The notes under the pieces: model-generated
The model's database searches: none
Told to the model about the DNA's origin: nothing
Seen by the model: the letters and a program-made list of their open reading frames with translations, nothing else
Shown here: one piece after another, positions 3,792 through 11,979 of the stretch
Numbering within the stretch: position 1 is the stretch's first letter
How the letters are laid out: every line of letters begins with the position of its first letter
Source: Candidatus Taylorbacteria bacterium RIFCSPHIGHO2_01_FULL_51_15
GTDB taxonomy: Bacteria; Patescibacteriota; Minisyncoccia; Phycocordibacterales; UBA10002
DNA: 64,000 nt
Reading direction: 5' to 3'
NCBI GenBank assembly: GCA_001820935.1
Contig: MHRI01000030.1
Span: forward strand, 2,734 to 66,733
Translations under genes and position numbers: made by a program

Positions 3792-4301
3792 CTACAATTT
3801 CTCCAGAAGATCTGAGACTTCTTCTACGGAATCGAGAAGTATAGCCTCGAGTGAAAGCGGTGGGGTGTCTGTTGCTCCCGATTCAAGATTTTCATGTTTG
3901 CTTCCCAGGTAGAGCCTCCGTAATTTTCGGTGCGTGGCTTCAATAAGTTCCGGCTCCGATAGGTAGTACTGCTCTGGATGGAAGCGTCTTACCCATCGTG
4001 CATGCCAGACTGATGTGGGGTCAGTGTCGATTTTTACGAGCTCAATCCATTTGCATTTACATCTTGCAAACGTGAGTTTAATTGGACGTCGTATAAACCA
4101 ACGCCATTTACCCTCGGGACTTTTGTATGAGATTACCTCATCGAGTGGAAGCAATATCTTGTGGATCCGAGTAACGAACGTGCAGCCACATTCCTTTCTT
4201 CGGCAACGACGTGAAATGCGTTTTGATAGGCGGTAGGAGAACCAAAGGAGCGCAAAGAAGCAACACGCTGAAAGCGCACCGAGGAAGAAATCAGTCTTCA
4301 T
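3792..4301 (-). CDS. Hypothetical basic, Cys-rich protein with an N-terminal membrane anchor
   Basis: 169-aa ORF with an N-terminal hydrophobic segment 'FLGALSACCFFALLWF'. No recognisable domain. Confidence 0.4.
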   Translation of the reverse strand: MKTDFFLGALSACCFFALLWFSYRLSKRISRRCRRKECGCTFVTRIHKILLPLDEVISYKSPEGKWRWFIRRPIKLTFARCKCKWIELVKIDTDPTSVWHARWVRRFHPEQYYLSEPELIEATHRKLRRLYLGSKHENLESGATDTPPLSLEAILLDSVEEVSDLLEKL

Positions 4302-4644: not shown

Positions 4645-5946
4645 ATGCCCGCCTTTCCACGTCGGCGAAAGACTCCTTACATTGGTGTCTTCAGAAAAAC
4701 ACCTTTCCTTTGCGCGATCATCGCCATCTTCTCGGTCGGACTCTATTTCGGGTTACCACTCGTGCTGAAGAAGAGTTATCAGCCTTTACTCCCCGCCGCC
4801 GCGGGCGAAGCGGTTCTCGAAGCGGCAATGACCCCCGCCGTCATCCACCTCAAAACGCCGATGCCGCAAAAGGCCATTTATATGACAAGTTGTGTCGTTG
4901 GCACACCCTCTTTTCGTCATGATCTCGTGAGCCTTGTCGAAGAAACGGAAATAAACAGCCTTGTGATTGATATCAAAGATTACTCGGGCATGCTCTCATT
5001 CACCCCAAAGGGGGAAGCACTAAAGGAGTTTATATCGACGAGGTGTATGGCTCCGGACATGCAAGAGTTTATACAAACGCTCCACGAAAAAGGGATTTAT
5101 GTCATTGGACGTATCACCGTGTTTCAAGATCCATTTCTCGCGAAACGGCGGCCTGATCTTGCCGTAAAGAAGGCGAGTAATGGCACGACGTGGCAGGATT
5201 ATAAAGGCATTAGCTTTACCGATCCCGGTGCAGAGGAGGTGTGGAAGCATATTGTCGACATCTCAAAGGAAGCTTACGCGATCGGCTTTGACGAACTCAA
5301 TTTTGATTACATCCGGTTTCCTTCTGACGGGCCTATGTCGGACATTGCCTTCCCCTGGAGCGAGAGTCGCAAAAAGGCTGACGTGCTGGAAGATTTCTTC
5401 GCCTACCTTTCAAAGGAGCTTCGGCCCATGGGGATCGTACTCTCCGCTGACCTATTCGGCATGACCACGACGAACACTGACGATCTCAACATCGGCCAGG
5501 TGCTTGAGAGAGCCGCGCCGCACTTCGACTATATCGCGCCGATGGTCTACCCTTCGCATTACCCTCCGAGGTTTAATGGCTGGGCGAATCCGAACGAGTA
5601 CCCCTATGATGTCGTTAAGTTCTCCATGGGAAGCGCCGTGAAGCGTTTTCTCGCCACCTCCACGCCTGTCGCGCTTCGCGGGGTAGAGCCGATTGCTTCT
5701 ACGACGCTCCCGCAAAGCTCTGTCGCGGGGCAAGCTCCGCTACTCTATCCTAAAGAATCATGGAATCCGGAGAAGCTCCGGCCCTGGCTTCAGGATTTTG
5801 ACTATGGCGGCAACTACGATATCGCGGAAGTTAAAGCCCAGATTACGGCGGTGTATGACGCGGGACTCACAAGTTGGATGCTCTGGGCTCCGTCGAATCG
5901 ATACACAAAGGGGGCCTTGGAAGGCGAGCAAGTATTGACGGATTAG
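4645..5946 (+). CDS. Membrane-anchored putative glycoside-hydrolase-like TIM-barrel protein (GHL/DUF4015-type)
   Basis: N-terminal TM helix, then 'AIYMTSCVVGTPSFRHDLVSLVEETEINSLVIDIKDY' and 'GFDELNFDYIRFP' segments typical of the 'putative glycoside hydrolase' family found in polysaccharide loci. Confidence 0.5.
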   Translation: MPAFPRRRKTPYIGVFRKTPFLCAIIAIFSVGLYFGLPLVLKKSYQPLLPAAAGEAVLEAAMTPAVIHLKTPMPQKAIYMTSCVVGTPSFRHDLVSLVEETEINSLVIDIKDYSGMLSFTPKGEALKEFISTRCMAPDMQEFIQTLHEKGIYVIGRITVFQDPFLAKRRPDLAVKKASNGTTWQDYKGISFTDPGAEEVWKHIVDISKEAYAIGFDELNFDYIRFPSDGPMSDIAFPWSESRKKADVLEDFFAYLSKELRPMGIVLSADLFGMTTTNTDDLNIGQVLERAAPHFDYIAPMVYPSHYPPRFNGWANPNEYPYDVVKFSMGSAVKRFLATSTPVALRGVEPIASTTLPQSSVAGQAPLLYPKESWNPEKLRPWLQDFDYGGNYDIAEVKAQITAVYDAGLTSWMLWAPSNRYTKGALEGEQVLTD

Positions 5947-6090
5947 ACTTCCTGTACTGTATAGATTTGCGCACATTGAGGGATTTTGGGCCATAGTGTA
6001 GCCTTGCTATAGTGCTCGCAACACCTCGGTTCGCTGATCTGCCAGCGGTCCGAGAAGGGATCACCCACAACCAAACCTCATACTAAACGT

Positions 6091-6459
6091 ATGCAAAAAC
6101 CCACCGGTGACGCAGAAGTGGATGCGTCGGTTGGACAGGCGCCTCTCTTTGAGGCGGTCGAGGAGTACAAGCGCGGACGGCAATTGGAGCCAGGGGATCG
6201 GCTGCGCCTACTCAAGGTAATCAACCCGACGCTAGGCCTCGAGCGTGCTGTGCTCGCGGTCAAGGCGTTTAGCCAGGGTACATTCACGAAGGCCGTGGTC
6301 GAAGCATGGCTCTTCTTCGGGAATCACTGGTTCCAAACACTACGAAGTTGGTTTCTCATGCAGGTCCGCCGAATTCGTCTTTCGACGGCAGATCTGCTTT
6401 TGCCGGAGCGCAAGAGCCACTTCATCGTCCTCACGCGCCATCACGTGTTTTGCGCGTAG
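6091..6459 (+). CDS. Hypothetical protein (orphan gene in a GC-rich segment)
   Basis: 122-aa ORF followed by its own terminator at 6510-6543. No homology recognised. Confidence 0.35.
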   Translation: MQKPTGDAEVDASVGQAPLFEAVEEYKRGRQLEPGDRLRLLKVINPTLGLERAVLAVKAFSQGTFTKAVVEAWLFFGNHWFQTLRSWFLMQVRRIRLSTADLLLPERKSHFIVLTRHHVFCA

Positions 6460-6509
6460 GTGGAATCAGCAGTTTAGAGTTCAGTCGCGCTAGGAAATGC
6501 GACCCACAG

Positions 6510-6543
6510 CCTCTCTCGTCGTTTCGCGAGAGAGGTTCTTTTA
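6510..6543 (+). terminator. Rho-independent terminator
   Basis: 'CCTCTCTCG-tcgtttcg-CGAGAGAGG' 9-bp stem followed by 'TTCTTTTA'. Confidence 0.55.
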
Positions 6544-6719
6544 TGCACGTTCTCTAGACACACATTCTTTTCTATAGTAAGCTACGAATCCAGTAGCGTC
6601 TTTACTCCGGTCTTCATGTGCGCGCCGACAGCGTTTGCCGGCTACCAAAGCACGGGAGTCTGGGGACGCGAAGCTCTTGCGGGTATCCAATGTATGGACC
6701 CCGCGAACAATAAAAAGTT

Positions 6720-7034
6720 ATGGCAGCACGACTGGATCGTTTGGAACGTTTGTTTACACAATCCGACACAGACGCCGAGGCCAACAATTACTTAACGTGG
6801 GACCATCTGCGTGAGGCGGTGAAAAAACCGAGCCGCGAGCAAATTTTAGCTCTGCCGCTACACGAACGGACGAATGTGCCCATCGCCTTCGTTGAGGCGG
6901 CGAAGATTGACTATGTCCCCGGGCCACCTGGCTTGCCCCAATTTGTCGGCTCTGCGGACGAGGTCGCGCAGTATCGAGCAGGTTTGGCTGACCTCAGTGT
7001 GGGCACGGGGAATCGTAGCCGATGGAGGTCCTAA
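6720..7034 (+). CDS. Hypothetical protein
   Basis: 104-aa ORF ending 30 nt before a strong terminator. No homology recognised. Confidence 0.4.
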   Translation: MAARLDRLERLFTQSDTDAEANNYLTWDHLREAVKKPSREQILALPLHERTNVPIAFVEAAKIDYVPGPPGLPQFVGSADEVAQYRAGLADLSVGTGNRSRWRS

Positions 7035-7062
7035 TCTCGCCATTCTCTCGTCGGTATTTTCG

Positions 7063-7098
7063 GGTGCGGCTAAGAATTGGCCGCACCTTTTCATTTTT
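7063..7098 (+). terminator. Rho-independent terminator
   Basis: 'GGTGCGGC-taagaattg-GCCGCACC' followed by 'TTTTCATTTTT'. Confidence 0.65.
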
Positions 7099-7128
7099 CT
7101 GCCCACAAAAGGTATACTATTGGAGTAT

Positions 7129-9072
7129 ATGGCCCTCCATTCTCAAAGCAAGCCCGAACCTATTACCTACTTTGGGCAGACCGACTCTCGAGGAAAGCGC
7201 GTCCCCTTCGGTATCAAGGAGCGGGACCGATCGCGGCACATGTACGTGATCGGGAAGACCGGCATGGGCAAGTCCACCTTGCTTGAAAACATGGCGATTC
7301 AGGATATCCGCAATAACCACGGGGTATGCTTTATCGACCCTCACGGAAAGACCGCGGACCTCCTCCTTGACTACGTTCCCGAGCACCGCTTGAAGGATGT
7401 CCTCTATTTCGCGCCTTTCGACATGGACTTTCCGGTGGCCTTCAACATCATGGAGGATGTGGGTCCTGACAAGCGGCATCTTGTGGTCAACGGTCTCATG
7501 GCCACTTTCGAAAAAATCTGGGTGGACGCGTGGAGCGCGCGCATGGCCTACATCTTACAAAACACACTCCTCGCTCTTCTTGAATATCCTGACTCGACAC
7601 TCCTTGGCGTGAACCGGATGCTCGTCGATAAAGAATATCGAAAACTCGTGGTGAATAATGTTTCCGACCCGTCGGTCAAATCCTTTTGGGTTGATGAATT
7701 CGCGAAGTACACCGATCGCTACACTCAAGAAGCAACACCTGCGATCCAAAACAAAGTAGGTCAATTTACCTCGAATCCGCTCATCCGCAATATCGTGGGA
7801 CAGTCGAAATCCACCTTCGATCTTCGAAAGCTCATGGACGAGCACAAGATCATTATCGTGAACCTCTCAAAGGGAAAGGTGGGCGAGGGGAACGCGAACC
7901 TCCTCGGGAGCATGTTTATCACGAAGGTCTATCTTGCCGCGATGTCTCGCGCGGACGTCACGGAACAGGAACTTCAGAAACTTCCGAATTTTTATCTCTA
8001 CGTCGACGAGTTTCAATCATTCGCCAATAAAAGTTTTGCCGATATTCTCTCCGAGGCTCGAAAGTACAAACTTAATCTCACGCTCGCGCATCAATACATC
8101 GAGCAGATGGAGGAAGAGGTGCGTGCGGCAGTCTTTGGGAACGTCGGCACCATGGCGGTCTTTCGGGTAGGCGCGTTTGACGCGGAATTTTTAGAAAAAG
8201 AATTCGCGCCCGCGCTTCTCGCGGAGGACCTCGTGAACTTAGGCATCTATCAGATCTACCTTAAGCTCATGATCGACGGCGTAACCTCGCCTCCATTCTC
8301 GGCAGTCACTATTCCTCCGATTGAGAGACAGCCAAAGTCTTATCGTGAAGAAGTGCTCGCGCATTCTCGGACGACTTTCGCGCGCCCGCGCGAAATCGTG
8401 GAGAATGAGATAAAGGAATGGCACGCGCCGATACTGCCACCTCCTAAGGAGCGTAAGGAACCCTCACTTCGTGCAGGAGAGACCCCTCGAGAACCTGAAC
8501 GAAATCCGCCTGTGGCTGCGGCTTCGCCTTCACCGCAAGAACCGCCCCGAGCGCCCCTGTCCGCAAGGCCACTCTCGCCGCCTCCACGCGCGCCCGAGAG
8601 ACGTTCCGCTGTTCCCCCAGAGGCTCGGACTCACCCTCGAACCCCACCTTCACCTACGCCTCCGATTTCGCTCTCGAATCTTCGGCGAGGGGCCAAAAAA
8701 GAACACACGTCCCAAGGACCTCGTTCTCTCGGAGGTGAGGATGCGCGCCGATCCGAACTTCGTAAAGCGCTTTTGGCGGTTCTCGAGTCACCCTCAAAGA
8801 CTCTTGGAGAAGTAAAGAGTTCCGGCCCGCCAGAACTTACCCCAGAGCGTTCTTCGCCCCTCACGTTGCAGACTTCTCCCGAGAGCCTTTCACCGAAAGG
8901 CAAAGAGCAAAGGGAAGCGAGCACCTCCGTCCGAAAAGCTTCCGTGTCGCCGCAAGGAGGGGAGAGAAGTGAGATTCCCGAAGACTTGCTTCGCCAGCTT
9001 CTTACGGTAGAGGTCCCTCCCCAAAGACCTAAAACGCCGCCTCACGCTCCTCCACCGCGCACGCAACCTTAG
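7129..9072 (+). CDS. TraD/VirD4/TraG-like P-loop NTPase (type IV secretion coupling-protein-like) with a long Pro/Ser/Arg-rich disordered C-terminal tail
   Basis: Walker A 'YVIGKTGMGKST'. Walker B 'FYLYVDEFQSF'. 'KLNLTLAHQYIEQ' segment. No N-terminal TM. Residues from about nt 8400 onward are low-complexity P/S/R/E-rich. The start is moved to ATG 7129 because upstream codons run through a terminator. Confidence 0.65.
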   Translation: MALHSQSKPEPITYFGQTDSRGKRVPFGIKERDRSRHMYVIGKTGMGKSTLLENMAIQDIRNNHGVCFIDPHGKTADLLLDYVPEHRLKDVLYFAPFDMDFPVAFNIMEDVGPDKRHLVVNGLMATFEKIWVDAWSARMAYILQNTLLALLEYPDSTLLGVNRMLVDKEYRKLVVNNVSDPSVKSFWVDEFAKYTDRYTQEATPAIQNKVGQFTSNPLIRNIVGQSKSTFDLRKLMDEHKIIIVNLSKGKVGEGNANLLGSMFITKVYLAAMSRADVTEQELQKLPNFYLYVDEFQSFANKSFADILSEARKYKLNLTLAHQYIEQMEEEVRAAVFGNVGTMAVFRVGAFDAEFLEKEFAPALLAEDLVNLGIYQIYLKLMIDGVTSPPFSAVTIPPIERQPKSYREEVLAHSRTTFARPREIVENEIKEWHAPILPPPKERKEPSLRAGETPREPERNPPVAAASPSPQEPPRAPLSARPLSPPPRAPERRSAVPPEARTHPRTPPSPTPPISLSNLRRGAKKEHTSQGPRSLGGEDARRSELRKALLAVLESPSKTLGEVKSSGPPELTPERSSPLTLQTSPESLSPKGKEQREASTSVRKASVSPQGGERSEIPEDLLRQLLTVEVPPQRPKTPPHAPPPRTQP

Positions 9073-9090
9073 CCGCTAGCTCGCTTTCCC

Positions 9091-10659
9091 GTGACATTTC
9101 GCGCTCGGACAAGTTTACCTCCACACTTTTTGTCCCAGAGTATGCCCATTAGGCGGTGCCCCCGTCTTCTCTGTTCACGTGCCAGTTTACCTGCGTGCGT
9201 TGCGCCAATCTTTAATTTTTTGTTTCTTGTCGGGATCTTACTTTCAATTCCGCATCCGACGCTACTCCGCGCTGAGGTACAGAAATTTGTTTTTGTATCG
9301 CCTCCCCAGACTGTTCCCCCCGGCGCCGTATCGGAGAAGATAACGTTGCAGTCGCAGGACGGAGCCGGAAATGAGTTCAAGGTCTCCGGCACGACGTGCG
9401 TGGCGCTCTCTTCCACGCCTTCCGGAGGAGAGTTTTCTTCGAGTGACGCCAATTGGTCTTTAGTGTCGGTGCTTACCATGGCCAAGAATTCCGCGAACCG
9501 GAATTTCCATTACAAAAATCCCGCGGCCGGTACCTACACGATCAAGGCAACTGTAGCTCTAAGGCCGGAAGGCGAAGAACGCTCTTGCCCAAGTTGGCCG
9601 CTCGCGGAATGGTCCTCCGGCTTCGAAGCGACACAGAGCATCACGATCGGCGGAACTGTAGAGAATGCGTCGAGTACTCCACCATCTGGAAATGCGGCGG
9701 AAGAGGGGGGCAGTGAAGCGGCTCCTCCTTCGCCACCGGCCACGCAAGGCAGCAACACGGTGAGTTACAAACCGCAGATCTCTGTGAGCGCTCTTGTGCC
9801 CTCTAGGGGGATCGTTGGTGCCCCCGTGCTGTTTGACGCGACCGCGATCGGGCTGAAGAAAGAACCTCTCATGAGTGCCCGCTACACATGGAGCTTTGGC
9901 GATGGCGGCTTTGGCGAGGGAAAGAAGATAGTGCACACCTATCACTATCCAGCCGTCTATGTGGTTATGGTTGATGCCTCCTCCGGAGAGTGGAGCGCGT
10001 CAGACCGAAAAGAAATTGTGATTGCACAGCCGGAACTTCGTATCTCGACCGTAAAGGAAGGAGGCGACGGATTCATCGAACTCCGGAATGGCGGCGCGGA
10101 TGAGGTTGATCTCTCGAATTGGCAACTTCGAAGCGGCACGCGCACCTTCTCTATTCCGGAAGGAACACGCATCGGAGCGCAAAAGGCCGTTCCTTTCCCA
10201 GCCCTGATTACGAACATCTCGGCCGATTCCCGAAGTACCACGCTTCTTTATCCGAACGGAGATACAGTTACAAAGTACGAAGAAAGGCCGGCGGCGCCCC
10301 CACCGGCACCTGTCAAAAAGGCGGAGGAGCAAGCGACGCAGACGGGAGCGGCAAAAAAAGAAACGTTGCGTAAAGAGACGATACCTCCTTCGCCACCGGT
10401 TCCACCCGCTGATGAAGACGCTCGTTCTCTTCCGCCCGAGCTTTCTCCTACAGCTTCGAGCACACCCCTTTCACAGGTACGTGAGCTTATCGGAGCCGCA
10501 GGAGCAAGCCAAACCGTTGGCGCAATGCCGTGGCTGCTCGCGCTAGGACTTTTCCTCGCGGTCTCGATCGGCGGGTACATCATGATGCTTCGGCCGAAGA
10601 AAGAAGAAAGCGCGGCAGAGAAACTGCAGAAAGAAGCGGCGGAATTTGAAATTGAATAG
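9091..10659 (+). CDS. Cell-surface protein with a PKD domain and lamin-tail domain (LTD), Pro/Ala-rich stalk and C-terminal TM anchor
   Basis: PKD-like 'YTWSFGDGGFGEGKKIVHTYHYPAVYVVMV'. LTD-like 'ELRISTVKEGGDGFIELRNGGADEVDLSNWQLRSG'. C-terminal 'PWLLALGLFLAVSIGGYIMML'. The true start may be ATG 9142. Confidence 0.6.
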   Translation: MTFRARTSLPPHFLSQSMPIRRCPRLLCSRASLPACVAPIFNFLFLVGILLSIPHPTLLRAEVQKFVFVSPPQTVPPGAVSEKITLQSQDGAGNEFKVSGTTCVALSSTPSGGEFSSSDANWSLVSVLTMAKNSANRNFHYKNPAAGTYTIKATVALRPEGEERSCPSWPLAEWSSGFEATQSITIGGTVENASSTPPSGNAAEEGGSEAAPPSPPATQGSNTVSYKPQISVSALVPSRGIVGAPVLFDATAIGLKKEPLMSARYTWSFGDGGFGEGKKIVHTYHYPAVYVVMVDASSGEWSASDRKEIVIAQPELRISTVKEGGDGFIELRNGGADEVDLSNWQLRSGTRTFSIPEGTRIGAQKAVPFPALITNISADSRSTTLLYPNGDTVTKYEERPAAPPPAPVKKAEEQATQTGAAKKETLRKETIPPSPPVPPADEDARSLPPELSPTASSTPLSQVRELIGAAGASQTVGAMPWLLALGLFLAVSIGGYIMMLRPKKEESAAEKLQKEAAEFEIE

Positions 10660-10755: not shown

Positions 10756-11979
10756 ATGAAGGTTTTAATTTTCAGCACCGCCTATCTGCCGTTTGTTGGC
10801 GGAGCGGAGCTTGCGATCAAAGAAATCACCGACCGCCTTGGTTCTCCTTTCCCCCTCTTTAGAGGGGGGATTCTGGGGGGTGCTTCCTTCGACCTCATCA
10901 CACTTAATCTTGATGGAAAACAAAAACCGGAGGAGCGAATCGGGAATGTGAACGTTATCCGCCTATCGTGCTCCAAACTCTTCTTTCCTATTCTTGCGCG
11001 CGAACGCGCCACAAAACTTCACTCCCGGAGATCATATACTCACGTCTGGTCAATCATGGCGTCCTATGGAGGTTTTGCGGGTCTCTTTTTCAAACGGCGG
11101 TTTCGGGGTGTCCCCTTTATTTTAACCCTTCAAGAAGGCGACTCTCTTTCTCATATTTACAGGCGAGCATTTCTTGCGTGGCCTCTTTTCAGACAGATCT
11201 TTACACGCGCCGATCGCATTACCGCGATTTCAAACTATTTGGCCGATTGGGCGAGAAAAATGGGAGCGAAGGGCGACATTCGTATCATATCGAATGGAGT
11301 GAATATAAAGAATTTCGAATTTCGAATTTCGAATATCGAAAAAGAAGAAATAAGAAAGAAATTAGGAATACAAAAGGAAGATAAAGTTGTGATTACGACA
11401 TCCAGACTCGTGGAGAAAAACGGAGTCGGCCACCTTATTGAATCTCTGCGGTATCTCCCGGAAAATGTGAAATTACTCATCCTCGGAACAGGCTCTCTTG
11501 AACCTGATTTAAAGCTAAAAGCTAAAAGCTATCAGCTAGAAGCTCGCGTGAAATTTGTCGGTTTCGTGCCGCACAATGAACTTCCACCCTTTCTTCATGC
11601 TGCCGATGTCTTCGTCCGACCGTCCCGTTCGGAAGGAATGGGGAGTTCATTTATAGAAGCTATGGCCGCCGGTCTTCCTGTCGTTGCGACACCGGTCGGC
11701 GGCATTCCGGACTTTCTCGCCGCGCCCCTTCCGGGCTCCGAAGAGGAAACGCATCTATTCTCTAATTCTCACGAATTAGAGAATAGATGGGGAGGGAATA
11801 TGACGGGGGTGTTTGTGAAAGTAGGGGATCCGAGAGATATCGCGGAAAAGATTAAATGCTTGTTGTCGAATGACGAACTCCGAAATAGGATCATCGCAAA
11901 CGCCTCGAAGATGGTGAAAGAAAAGTATGAGTGGGATGGGATTGTAGAGAGGATGAAAGAGGTATTTGACAAAATATAG
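10756..11979 (+). CDS. Glycosyltransferase family 4, with an in-frame palindromic insertion and a heptamer repeat
   Basis: 'MKVLIFSTAYLPFVGGAELAIKEITDRL' GT4 N-terminus. C-terminal 'RPSRSEGMGSSFIEAMAAGLPVVATPVGGIPDFL' EX7E-type motif. Confidence 0.8.
   Translation: MKVLIFSTAYLPFVGGAELAIKEITDRLGSPFPLFRGGILGGASFDLITLNLDGKQKPEERIGNVNVIRLSCSKLFFPILARERATKLHSRRSYTHVWSIMASYGGFAGLFFKRRFRGVPFILTLQEGDSLSHIYRRAFLAWPLFRQIFTRADRITAISNYLADWARKMGAKGDIRIISNGVNIKNFEFRISNIEKEEIRKKLGIQKEDKVVITTSRLVEKNGVGHLIESLRYLPENVKLLILGTGSLEPDLKLKAKSYQLEARVKFVGFVPHNELPPFLHAADVFVRPSRSEGMGSSFIEAMAAGLPVVATPVGGIPDFLAAPLPGSEEETHLFSNSHELENRWGGNMTGVFVKVGDPRDIAEKIKCLLSNDELRNRIIANASKMVKEKYEWDGIVERMKEVFDKI
10840..10885. repeat. GC-rich palindromic element inserted in frame into the GT4 gene
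   Basis: 'CCCCCTC-TTTA-GAGGGGG' hairpin (10851-10869). Encodes the extra 'GSPFPLFRGGILGGAS' between conserved GT4 N-terminal segments. Confidence 0.6.
11310..11337. repeat. Heptanucleotide tandem repeat (GAATTTC)x3 plus GAATATC inside the GT4 ORF
   Basis: Direct reading of 'gaatttcgaatttcgaatttcgaatatc'. Encodes 'NFEFRISNIE' in the inter-domain linker. Confidence 0.8.

Follow-up and report, generated by a model that had tools for sequence, protein, structure and literature searches.

Does a short segment of a contig from a groundwater Candidatus Taylorbacteria genome, which encodes a coupling-protein-like ATPase next to two small ORFs and a surface protein, derive from an integrated DNA-transfer element, or is it a resident locus of the chromosome, and with which partner would such an ATPase work? 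The first-pass annotation of this segment (5947-10659 of the 64,000-nucleotide stretch of DNA analysed, here called the window) had read it as accessory cargo or as the remnant of a transfer apparatus. The features found are summarized in Table 1.

Table 1. Features of the ATPase locus and its conserved neighbours (window coordinates).
Feature	Position	Strand	Basis or remark
DUF4015 putative glycoside hydrolase, N-terminal TM	4645..5946	+	Pfam DUF4015, E 1.9e-95; conserved neighbour upstream
ORF1, 122 aa (A2849_01015)	6091..6459	+	small lineage-restricted family, AWLFFG..WF motif
Intrinsic-terminator-like hairpin 3' of ORF1	6508..6537	+	12-bp stem, then T-run
Sigma-70-like promoter, conserved	6555..6583	+	-35 TAGACA 6555-6560, 17-nt spacer, -10 TAAGCT 6578-6583
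Conserved structured RNA (leader or small RNA), ~120 nt, four helices	6583..6712	+	alignment A5 and RNAalifold, 36 pairs
ORF2, 104 aa (A2849_01020), doubtful as a gene	6720..7034	+	starts at conserved ATG ending the RNA element
Intrinsic-terminator-like hairpin just 5' of ATPase gene	7062..7088	+	12-bp stem, then TTTTCATTTTT
ATPase core, VirD4/TraD/TrwB-clade nucleotide-binding domain without TM	7129..8424	+	all-helical insertion
Walker A, GKTGMGKST	7252..7278		aa 42-50
Walker B, YLYVDEF	7990..8013		aa 288-295
Disordered Pro/Ser/Arg-rich tail and stop codon	8425..9072	+	composition, pLDDT, conservation
Tail motif 1	8665..8685	+	aa 513-519
Tail motif 2	8752..8784	+	aa 542-552
Tail motif 3	8968..9012	+	aa 614-628
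Single-pass PKD/LTD surface protein	9091..10659	+	Pfam PKD and LTD, homologue alignment, hydropathy; alternative start ATG 9142
PKD domain	9805..10017		aa 239-309, above Pfam cut-off
LTD domain	10024..10272		aa 312-394, above Pfam cut-off
C-terminal TM of PKD/LTD protein	10531..10590		aa 481-500, then 22-aa tail
End EFEIE of cytoplasmic tail	10642..10656
GT4 glycosyltransferase	10756..11979	+	Pfam Glycos_transf_1, E 4e-40; conserved neighbour downstream

Gene order and base composition

The segment was found between peptidoglycan genes (mur) and a large cluster for the biosynthesis of surface glycans, which extends over ~50 kb and begins with the GT4 gene. Most of the 86 related loci kept the gene order DUF4015, ATPase, (PKD/LTD), GT4. 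In 64 of 69 loci a DUF4015 gene preceded the ATPase gene in the same orientation, and in 67 of 75 a GT4 gene was located downstream of it, often starting -14 to +60 nt from the ATPase stop codon; mur ligases adjoined this set in most loci. The PKD/LTD gene was present in only about one third. Comparing the related loci, the ATPase was the most conserved gene, with a median identity of 75.7% versus 50.1%, 42.7%, and 37.4% for its neighbours.

The part 5947-7128, described before as GC-richer, did show a GC content of 0.542 versus 0.502 for the window; the excess was only marginal (z 1.7), with 7% of the same-size windows equally high. For 5947-10659 as a whole, a GC content of 0.551 and a tetranucleotide distance of z 4.0 were obtained. 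This deviation, the conjugation-type family of the ATPase and the orphan small ORFs would favour an integrated conjugative element, of which the segment would be cargo or a decayed remnant. However, GC3 was not raised, with values of 0.48 for the ATPase tail and 0.56 for the PKD/LTD gene versus a genome mean of 0.56. The first and second codon positions of segments rich in Pro, Ala, Ser, and Arg carried the excess, which thus reflects amino-acid composition. No VirB4 or other T4SS, relaxase, pilin or integrase genes were detected in the window and ~13 kb beyond it (~80 kb), and a search for tRNA genes and flanking repeats yielded none. Moreover, the synteny extends across dozens of species, and the motifs of the ATPase are intact and invariant. 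An origin as cargo or remnant of a mobile element is therefore contradicted, and we give it almost no credence.

The spacer upstream of the ATPase gene

The 1.2-kb spacer 5' of the ATPase gene is a lineage-variable region. Here it consists of an ORF1 unit with its own terminator and a second unit of promoter, structured RNA, weakly supported ORF and terminator. The two small ORFs were present as first annotated, and a strong terminator-like hairpin lies behind each of them. ORF1 is a small real gene. Its codon score of 0.162 lies inside the range of genes, and its family comprised only two other members among 1.84 billion representatives, P0123 (42% identity, E 4e-12) and P0124 (E 6e-6), plus a further copy at 7614-7925 of related locus L002. 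In the two relatives whose contexts were examined, P0123 and the L002 copy are located between the DUF4015 and ATPase genes, as is ORF1. No Pfam, NCBIfam, PADLOC or PHROG match was obtained for ORF1. The hairpin behind it reached -19.6 kcal/mol (z -3.6 vs shuffles), and L086 carries a hairpin at the equivalent position 3' of its ORF1 homologue. For the hairpin in front of the ATPase gene, -20.4 kcal/mol was calculated (z -4.2 vs shuffles), with equivalents in L009, L086, and L087.

Between these hairpins, the layout of the promoter recurred in the alignment with L001, L009, L086, and L087 (TGGACA, N17, then TAATCT, TATAAT or TAGCCT). In the RNA element the paired cells amounted to 84%, compared to 33-51% in slid controls. 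Changes on both sides were seen for 14 pairs versus a shuffle mean of 6.3. Its covariance model matched only five loci among 87 sources, namely the close relatives of the alignment, and there was no Rfam match. ORF2 is doubtful as a gene because of its low codon score (0.049 vs 0.205 +/- 0.049 for the genes of the window), the lack of homologues (a self-match only among 5.8 billion proteins, no tblastn match in related loci) and its omission from the public gene call of L088, a locus from the same population. The ORFs at this position in relatives were unrelated in sequence, except for L009 versus L087.

A soluble ATPase of the coupling protein clade

The N-termini of the orthologues place the true start of the ATPase gene at ATG 7129 and not at the ORF start 6874, yielding a protein of 647 aa up to the stop codon ending at 9072. 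A coupling-protein-like ATPase lacking N-terminal TM helices had been proposed for this gene, and this held true. No TM helix was found, the maximal 19-residue hydropathy being 1.12, and a TM domain was likewise absent in all 86 orthologues (528-794 aa; maximal hydropathy <=1.45). More than 8000 homologues were retrieved, among them a Candidatus Taylorbacteria RIFCSPHIGHO2_01_FULL protein with 100% identity. At least 594 species genomes encode the ATPase, with a core identity of 72-92%.

The Pfam models T4SS-DNA_transf, TrwB_AAD_bind, and TraG-D_C all matched above their cut-offs. Using the structure model, in which residues 333-391 are of low confidence, Foldseek gave Cag-beta, DotL, and TrwB as top matches, and TrwB was the only match of a profile search against PDB sequences. 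A coupling protein of a Bacillus MPF-FATA-type plasmid (pPMO031_2, WP_238810573.1) aligned to 94% of the core with 27% identity, and its gene adjoins relaxase-like, PrgI/VirB3, and VirB4-like genes. On the strength of the Pfam coupling protein models and this homologue beside transfer genes, the ATPase belongs by sequence to the VirD4/TraD/TrwB (T4CP) clade of FtsK-HerA-type ATPases, not with HerA or FtsK.

Within this clade clear differences became visible. Compared to TrwB (R388), TraD (F), VirD4, DotL, and Cag-beta, with which it shares only 12-17% identity, the ATPase lacks the N-terminal TM domain and has no relaxase or T4SS genes nearby; it stays far under the cut-offs of the NCBIfam TraD models (e.g., 49.8 vs 366 bits). 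The Bacillus protein, unlike the ATPase, has 942 aa and two N-terminal TM helices and is plasmid-borne within a transfer operon. TM-less stand-alone homologues were found on non-mobilizable plasmids, i.e., Sulfitobacter WP_259956255.1 (40% identical, same N-terminus, no T4SS nearby) and Bradyrhizobium WP_247904195.1, and another relative is phrog_5156, which matches the core with E 1e-60. However, in these proteins the disordered tail with its motifs is missing, or an additional N-terminal domain is present in its place, and the plasmid genes sit among transposases or CHAT/TPR genes, while the position of the ATPase gene is conserved and chromosomal. A role as translocase in defence or DNA surveillance, comparable to that of DndH or of the mad8 ATPase of PADLOC, was also considered. 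The DndH C-terminal domain and mad8 belong to multi-gene defence systems, and their partner genes are missing at this locus. Furthermore, genes for defence tend to be patchily distributed and to evolve fast, in contrast to a strongly conserved, syntenic gene in that many species. This makes a defence function highly improbable.

The ATPase counts among the orphan T4CP homologues previously described throughout Patescibacteria, which are likewise chromosomal, mostly far from virB4 and without relaxase (Quinonero-Coronel et al., 2025, Microb Genom, PMC12102498). That survey counted 5,713 VirD4-like homologues in 2,918 genomes; of these homologues, no more than 148 were encoded close to virB4. 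For Southlakia epibionticum the T4SS was reported as essential and a T4CP homologue, not necessarily the orthologue of this ATPase, as non-essential (PMC12102498), which counts against a T4SS as its partner. The parts of that account considered here mention neither a missing TM domain nor the 72-92% conservation within this orthologue group, and likewise neither the synteny with DUF4015 and GT4 nor the tail motifs nor the PKD/LTD partner (PMC12102498).

The tail of the ATPase and the PKD/LTD protein

The long Pro/Ser-rich tail noted in the first-pass annotation was recovered as ~215 aa (aa ~433-647, nt ~8425-9069) with 21% Pro, 13% Ser, and 11% Arg; in agreement with that description, Tandem Repeats Finder detected no tandem repeats. 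In this otherwise variable region three short helical motifs are conserved. The predicted structure has a pLDDT <50 except for short helices at these motifs, and column conservation reached 96%, 91%, and 95% for L544, A547, and L548 and 93%, 96%, and 98% for E615, L621, and L625.

The downstream ORF begins 18 nt past the stop codon of the ATPase gene (19 nt to GTG 9091), with no terminator-like site between the two genes in the scan. The spacing is operon-like (-29 to +32 nt) in most loci with a PKD/LTD gene, and co-transcription with the ATPase gene is predicted for ~28 loci. The assignment as PKD and LTD protein with a C-terminal anchor proved correct. The protein comprises a signal/anchor segment (hydrophobic at aa 37-53), an Ig-like domain, PKD, LTD, a Pro-rich stalk, the TM and a cytoplasmic tail, whose end follows a pattern conserved among the homologues, (F/Y)(E/D)I(I/V)E.

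A minimal device for DNA uptake or transfer had also been suggested in the first-pass annotation; in such a device the surface protein would bind DNA and the ATPase would pull it in or push it out. Some extracellular nucleases and DNA-binding proteins carry LTD domains, the ATPase is of a DNA-translocase clade, and the predicted co-transcription and the conserved cytoplasmic end point in the same direction. However, a single-pass protein alone is no DNA conduit, and a channel protein, pilin, ComEC, relaxase, and VirB4 are all absent nearby. Where the PKD/LTD gene is missing (~2/3 of loci), neither the ATPase nor its tail motifs show a change. We consider such a device improbable.

Possible role of the ATPase

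Conjugative coupling proteins seldom show a conservation of ~76% across a class; taken together with a position that stays fixed between genes for the envelope, this suggests a housekeeping role. The ATPase might be an exapted motor for the envelope or for division that no longer serves a secretion system. It would then work with the DUF4015 hydrolase, GT4, the mur cluster or the divisome, for instance by pumping DNA like FtsK or by serving as an assembly ATPase, tethered by its conserved C-terminal peptide. The layout of the ATPase, with a folded NTPase, a variable disordered linker and a short conserved terminal peptide E(I/V)PE(D/E)xL(R/K), resembles that of FtsZ with its own C-terminal peptide. 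In favour of such a motor are the top conservation of the ATPase within the locus, its locked position between DUF4015 and GT4 beside the mur ligases, and the short distance to the GT4 start. The survey authors themselves stated that exaptation of the VirD4-like homologues of Patescibacteria "cannot be ruled out" (PMC12102498). We regard exaptation as an unlikely, nevertheless serious, possibility.

With somewhat better than even confidence, we favour a vertically inherited chromosomal locus of Candidatus Taylorbacteria (Paceibacteria, Patescibacteria/CPR) encoding a soluble orphan ATPase of the T4CP clade, whose likeliest partner is a T4SS encoded elsewhere. The ATPase may assemble into an ATP-driven ring in the cytoplasm, which would recognise or push DNA or protein as its substrate. 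Since it has no anchor of its own, we propose recruitment in trans to a membrane partner via the tail motifs. The C-terminal tails of TraD and DotL bind adaptor proteins, which offers a precedent for tail-mediated recruitment. The coupling protein TraJ of pIP501 is not known to carry a TM domain either. As a precedent for anchoring in trans, TraI was proposed as the anchor of this TraJ (PMC12857230). In the Taylorbacteria-like subclade, the PKD/LTD protein with its cytoplasmic end motif may be a second candidate partner; its restriction to ~1/3 of the loci counts against it. The likeliest partner would be the chromosomal, relaxase-less T4SS of Patescibacteria, a coupling drawn from homology only, as T4SS genes are absent within the ~80 kb.

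Gene Order and Base Composition of the ATPase Locus

When one genome per species was scanned, the 647-residue ATPase, which resembles VirD4, TraD and TrwB, was found encoded in at least 594 genomes, and its core was 72-92% identical in the best 80 of these at least 594. As these 80 loci are those of the closest relatives, the locus statistics describe Paceibacteria near the query and not all CPR. Five relatives whose gene tables were examined, the fifth of them found later, had the order mur ... RsmI ... DUF4015 - ATPase - (PKD/LTD) - GT4 - glycosyltransferase in common, with DUF4015 being a putative glycoside hydrolase gene, PKD/LTD a surface protein gene and GT4 a glycosyltransferase gene. 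A total of 86 loci was examined. In 64 of the 69 loci with enough sequence DUF4015 preceded the ATPase gene on the same strand, and in 67 of 75 GT4 lay downstream of it. Median identities to the window were 75.7% for the ATPase, 50.1% for DUF4015, 42.7% for GT4 and 37.4% for the PKD/LTD protein. Coordinates are compiled in the table.

Features of the ATPase locus and of related loci (L001, L002, L009, L086, L087: loci fetched for comparison; P0124: homologous protein of ORF1)
Feature	Position	Strand	Remark
DUF4015 hydrolase	window 4645-5946	+	Pfam
Spacer	window 5947-7128	+	1182 bp, between DUF4015 and ATPase
ORF1 family	window 6091-6459; L086 3587-3940; L002 7614-7925; P0124		~105-122 aa
Hairpin after ORF1	window 6508-6537		12 bp
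Promoter and RNA	window 6555-6712; L001 ~7514-7674; L009 ~5518-5684; L086 ~4004-4164; L087 ~6704-6871	+ (window)	
Hairpin after ORF2	window 7062-7088		12 bp
ATPase	window 7129-9072	+	100% identical to A2849_01025
Tail motif 1	aa 513-519		(I/V)SLxxL
Tail motif 2	aa 541-552		N(L/I/V)SxL(K/R)xALxxVL; L544 96%, A547 91%, L548 95%
Tail motif 3	aa 614-628 (nt 8968-9012)		(K)E(I/V)PE(D/E)xL(R/K)xhLxV(D/E); E615 93%, L621 96%, L625 98%
Gap ATPase to PKD/LTD		+	18 nt
PKD/LTD protein	window 9091 or 9142 to 10659	+	Pfam domains
GT4 glycosyltransferase	window 10756-11979	+	

The first-pass annotation had taken the block at 5947-10659 for accessory DNA, either cargo or a remnant or minimal DNA-transfer or uptake apparatus. 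The reading as accessory, cargo or remnant DNA had to be given up. VirB4, relaxase and pilin genes, for which a search of the flanks had been proposed, were absent, as was any integrase, from the Pfam survey of the whole 64-kb window and from the sequence outside both ends. No T4SS channel or relaxase genes were present in the gene tables of six related loci (L001-L005 and L086), no tRNA was found in the window and no repeats were found flanking the block. Base composition did deviate, with a GC content of 0.551 (z 3.1) and a tetranucleotide distance of z 4.0 for the block. The excess was located in the ATPase tail (0.606) and the PKD/LTD gene (0.558), while the spacer, originally described as GC-richer, was only marginally so (z 1.7). 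GC3 amounted to 0.48 in the tail and 0.56 in the PKD/LTD gene versus a gene mean of 0.561 +/- 0.042. Being at or below the genome mean, it indicates that the deviation mirrors protein segments rich in Pro, Ala, Ser and Arg rather than foreign DNA. Synteny, GC3 and the absence of integrase, relaxase, tRNA and repeats thus rule against a genomic island or integrative element, and a mobile-element role of the ATPase is less likely. In practice, the outcome of the genome scan was negative: the block is not a mobile element. The annotated features were all found in the sequence, yet the ATPase locus belongs to the core, has ordinary genome architecture and is vertically inherited.

Among the genes of the window, Pfam identified a peptidoglycan ligase and RsmI, along with about 50 kb devoted to surface glycans and nonulosonic acid. 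The glycan genes extend nearly uninterrupted from 10756 to 63606 and comprise several GT4 and GT2 enzymes, a GT47 exostosin-like protein, PMT_2, GtrA, UDP-glucose dehydrogenase, GDP-mannose dehydratases, NeuB with a 2-epimerase and a CMP-transferase (nonulosonic acid), C- and O-methyltransferases and an ABC exporter; for a genome that is small, such an investment is large. Most genes of the window have no Shine-Dalgarno sequence; in its place a TATAAT-like box stands 6-12 nt ahead of the start codon (for example starts 7129, 10756, 13172, 20452, 21374 and 23565, likewise for the ATPase genes of L009, L086 and L087). This suggests mRNAs with no leader or a very short one. In a locus of the same population (L088, 2563-3090), about 2 kb ahead of where the window begins, a small gene of the YafQ toxin family lies between the two mur ligase genes. 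It is preceded by an ORF of 89 aa, and the two look like a toxin-antitoxin pair.

Family Placement of the ATPase

The nucleotide-binding domain of the ATPase is RecA-like and of the VirD4 clade, and its Walker A (GKTGMGKST, aa 42-50) and Walker B (aa 288-295) motifs are both intact. The start of the ATPase was assigned to ATG 7129 and not to the upstream ORF start at 6874, as shown by the N-termini of 86 orthologues, which begin about 10 aa ahead of the conserved core. The annotated lack of TM helices was borne out for the whole group: a TM segment was found in 0 of the 86 orthologues, none of which contained a 19-residue window at hydropathy 1.6 that could represent an N-terminal TM domain.

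The coupling-protein profiles T4SS-DNA_transf, TrwB_AAD_bind (aligned over positions 10-308 of 387) and TraG-D_C each scored above cut-off, as the first-pass annotation had anticipated. The cut-offs of NCBIfam were missed for SXT_TraD (49.8 versus 366 bits), conj_TOL_TraD (41.9 versus 647) and conju_CD1115 (32 versus 250). Sequence profiles group the ATPase weakly but consistently with the coupling proteins. TrwB was the sole match of the family profile among PDB sequences. The AF2 model, with a pLDDT mostly of 80-95 in the core and poor values for aa 333-391 and the tail, predicted that aa 116-237, flanked by strands 91-94 and 241-245, form an insertion made up of helices only (pLDDT 82-95). 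Its top Foldseek matches were Cag-beta, DotL and TrwB, with HerA (13.8), FtsK (10.6) and TcpA (10.6) clearly below. A HerA or FtsK DNA translocase as nearest kin was rejected, since structure and sequence relatives are coupling proteins. A defence role was considered as well. The best single profile hit was mad8 of PADLOC (E 2.6e-14), which otherwise gave only weak HerA profiles on the ATPase. PADLOC found nothing on the proteins adjoining the ATPase; partner genes of a Dnd- or MADS-type translocase are absent, and the Pfam survey of the window showed only glycan-synthesis genes, which makes such a role less likely.

The ATPase is thus a soluble member of the type IV coupling protein (T4CP) clade. 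Two classical attributes of T4CPs, the TM domain and the linkage to a T4SS or relaxase, are lacking. It represents a TM-less, tailed and very strongly conserved variant of a known family, whose occurrence in Patescibacteria is already published. PMC12102498 gives 5,713 VirD4-like homologues in 2,918 Patescibacteria genomes with just 148 near virB4, describes the T4CP homologue of S. epibionticum as non-essential, and considers exaptation of these homologues possible.

Relatives were also found outside CPR. A Bacillus plasmid protein of 942 aa, 27% identical to the ATPase, differs by two N-terminal TM helices. It adjoins relaxase-like, PrgI/VirB3 and VirB4-like genes and is therefore a bona fide coupling protein, whereas the ATPase has no such neighbours. 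TM-less kin of the CPR ATPase occur on two further plasmids. Sulfitobacter plasmid NZ_CP081110.1 (L090, 7989-9176) encodes a stand-alone protein of 395 aa, 40% identical to the CPR ATPase, which likewise has no T4SS nearby and lies next to transposases. A Bradyrhizobium plasmid (L091, 7095-9221) encodes a fusion protein of 708 aa among CHAT and TPR genes. The profile phrog_5156 matched the ATPase with E 1e-60.

The C-Terminal Tail

The tail (aa ~433-647) consists of 21% Pro, 13% Ser and 11% Arg, and no tandem repeats were detected in it, in agreement with the annotated low-complexity tail without a periodic unit. Among 82 orthologues the mean frequency of the top residue was 0.82 in the core and 0.23 in the tail, and orthologue length varied from 528 to 794 aa. 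Three short motifs are conserved in the tail. Short helices predicted by the AF2 model coincide exactly with these motifs, and the remaining tail chain is modelled as disordered. Motifs and helices together are the signature of docking-type peptides, and the tail would accordingly be a flexible linker bearing them. The motifs are kept with or without an adjacent PKD/LTD gene, hence their partner should be something group-wide. Motif 3, E(I/V)PE(D/E)xL(R/K), which lies near the terminus behind a disordered linker, bears a resemblance to the C-terminal peptide of FtsZ, D-I-P-x-F-L-R-K. A tblastn search prompted by this idea gave no match for FtsZ or FtsA in any fetched locus.

The Downstream PKD/LTD Protein

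The annotated surface protein with PKD and LTD domains and a C-terminal anchor was confirmed. Pfam scores exceeded the cut-offs for PKD_4 (36.3 versus 27 bits), LTD (36.5 versus 34.3) and PKD (33.4 versus 23.5), and the protein is hydrophobic in a segment near its N-terminus and in a C-terminal TM helix, behind which 22 residues remain. A single-pass protein is encoded directly after the ATPase in about 28 loci, in most with an operon-like spacing of -29 to +32 nt. Loci without this gene have GT4 directly after the ATPase gene. The usual architecture is LTD-PKD-LTD, with an Ig-like domain in place of the first LTD in the window.

Identity among the ectodomains is as low as 27%, yet in 20 of the 28 proteins, as scored by a permissive pattern, the cytoplasmic stretch beyond the C-terminal TM helix closes with (F/Y)(E/D)I(I/V)E. 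The peptide, (F/Y)(E/D)I(I/V)E(D), was seen in the region 10591-10656 of the window and in about 20 loci with otherwise divergent surface proteins, and the proteins of L013 and L042 carry it behind ectodomains not recognisably PKD/LTD. Because the cytoplasmic end is conserved despite the divergent ectodomains, the PKD/LTD protein may be a membrane tether for the anchor-less ATPase. Such tethering would parallel the anchoring of pIP501 TraJ by TraI, as proposed in PMC12857230.

The Spacer Between the DUF4015 and ATPase Genes

The spacer is between 23 nt and 1.2 kb long in the relatives, and what it contains is specific to the lineage. Nothing in common with the window's spacer was found in those of seven loci (L002, L005, L006, L008, L014, L016, L018). 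The two small ORFs each followed by a strong terminator were recovered as annotated, with hairpin energies of -19.6 kcal/mol (z -3.6) after ORF1 and -20.4 kcal/mol (z -4.2) after ORF2. ORF1 (122 aa) and ORF2 (104 aa) are 100% identical to A2849_01015 and A2849_01020, which like A2849_01025 are proteins of Candidatus Taylorbacteria bacterium RIFCSPHIGHO2_01_FULL (Parcubacteria/Paceibacteria, CPR), to a contig of which the window corresponds. With a codon score of 0.162 versus 0.205 +/- 0.049 for genes, ORF1 looks coding. Both ORFs yielded only self-hits in a word-indexed set of 5.8 billion proteins, and an exhaustive search recovered two ORF1 relatives missed there, which brought the detectable relatives to just three. 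The family shows a conserved AWLFFG..WF..L..W motif and no known domain. In all three members with context examined (window, L086, L002) its gene is placed after DUF4015 and before the ATPase gene, and the L086 relative has its own RBS and terminator. ORF2 had a codon score of 0.049 and no homologue in the protein-set and locus searches.

Upstream of ORF2, the window and four close loci (L001, L009, L086, L087) have a promoter in common, composed of a -35 box T(A/G)GACA, 17 nt and a -10 box TAAGCT, TAATCT, TATAAT or TAGCCT. It is followed by an RNA of about 120 nt with four helices and compensatory changes. Paired cells made up 84% in the fold and 33-51% in slid controls; among the 36 pairs, 14 were altered on both sides versus a shuffle mean of 6.3. 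The energy of the single-sequence fold was no better than that of shuffles (z -0.37), therefore the support for the structure comes entirely from covariation, which from five sequences is suggestive and not conclusive. A conserved ATG, the start of ORF2, closes the element, the sequence downstream of it is unconserved, and a terminator stands just ahead of the ATPase gene in each of the five loci.

Rfam gave nothing over the window at gathering thresholds, and at E <= 10 over 5900-7200 only a Bacilli-1 fragment on the opposite strand, at chance level. A covariance model run on 87 sources found no copies past the five training loci, so the RNA is narrowly distributed; a single metagenome scan with the promoter-plus-RNA pattern had added one locus only, L087. 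A complementarity of 15 nt between the RNA (6657-6671) and the PKD/LTD gene (9298-9312) was discarded as chance level, as by our own estimate about 0.7 pairs are expected per 5.7 kb. A perfect DnaA-box-like TTATCCACA was observed just upstream of the -35 box in L001 (~7500-7510) and L009 (~5505-5515). The site is degenerate in the window (6541-6549, TTATGCACG) and in L086.

Possible Function and Significance

We infer that the ATPase would work as a cytoplasmic ATP-driven ring, recruited in trans via its tail peptides, and would serve a membrane machine. Coupling to a chromosomal, relaxase-less Patescibacterial T4SS is placed first among the candidate roles, since the nearest relatives whose function is anchored are coupling proteins. 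An exapted role in envelope or division is a close rival, in favour of which speak the extreme conservation of the ATPase, the fixed context of envelope genes and the T4CP homologue reported in PMC12102498 as non-essential where the T4SS is essential. DNA uptake is less likely. Going further, the ATPase might be an indispensable housekeeping motor of Paceibacteria that abandoned conjugation, a soluble ring drawn by its tail peptides to a partner in the membrane or divisome (possibly, within the Taylorbacteria-like clade, the (F/Y)(E/D)I(I/V)E end of the PKD/LTD protein) within an undescribed trans-envelope machine, with the lineage-specific structured RNA as regulator; we regard this full picture as improbable.

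A large part of bacterial diversity belongs to the Patescibacteria, their T4SS genes are essential in the sole species tested, and VirD4-like genes by the thousand sit apart from the T4SS of Patescibacteria. To this the present analysis adds the tail motifs, the candidate tether, the synteny and the small RNA and ORF units of the spacer. Four traits define the ATPase group, namely no membrane anchor, a conservation far above that of the locus neighbours, a fixed place between cell-envelope genes and three docking-type tail peptides, and they therefore offer concrete handles for a search for its partner.
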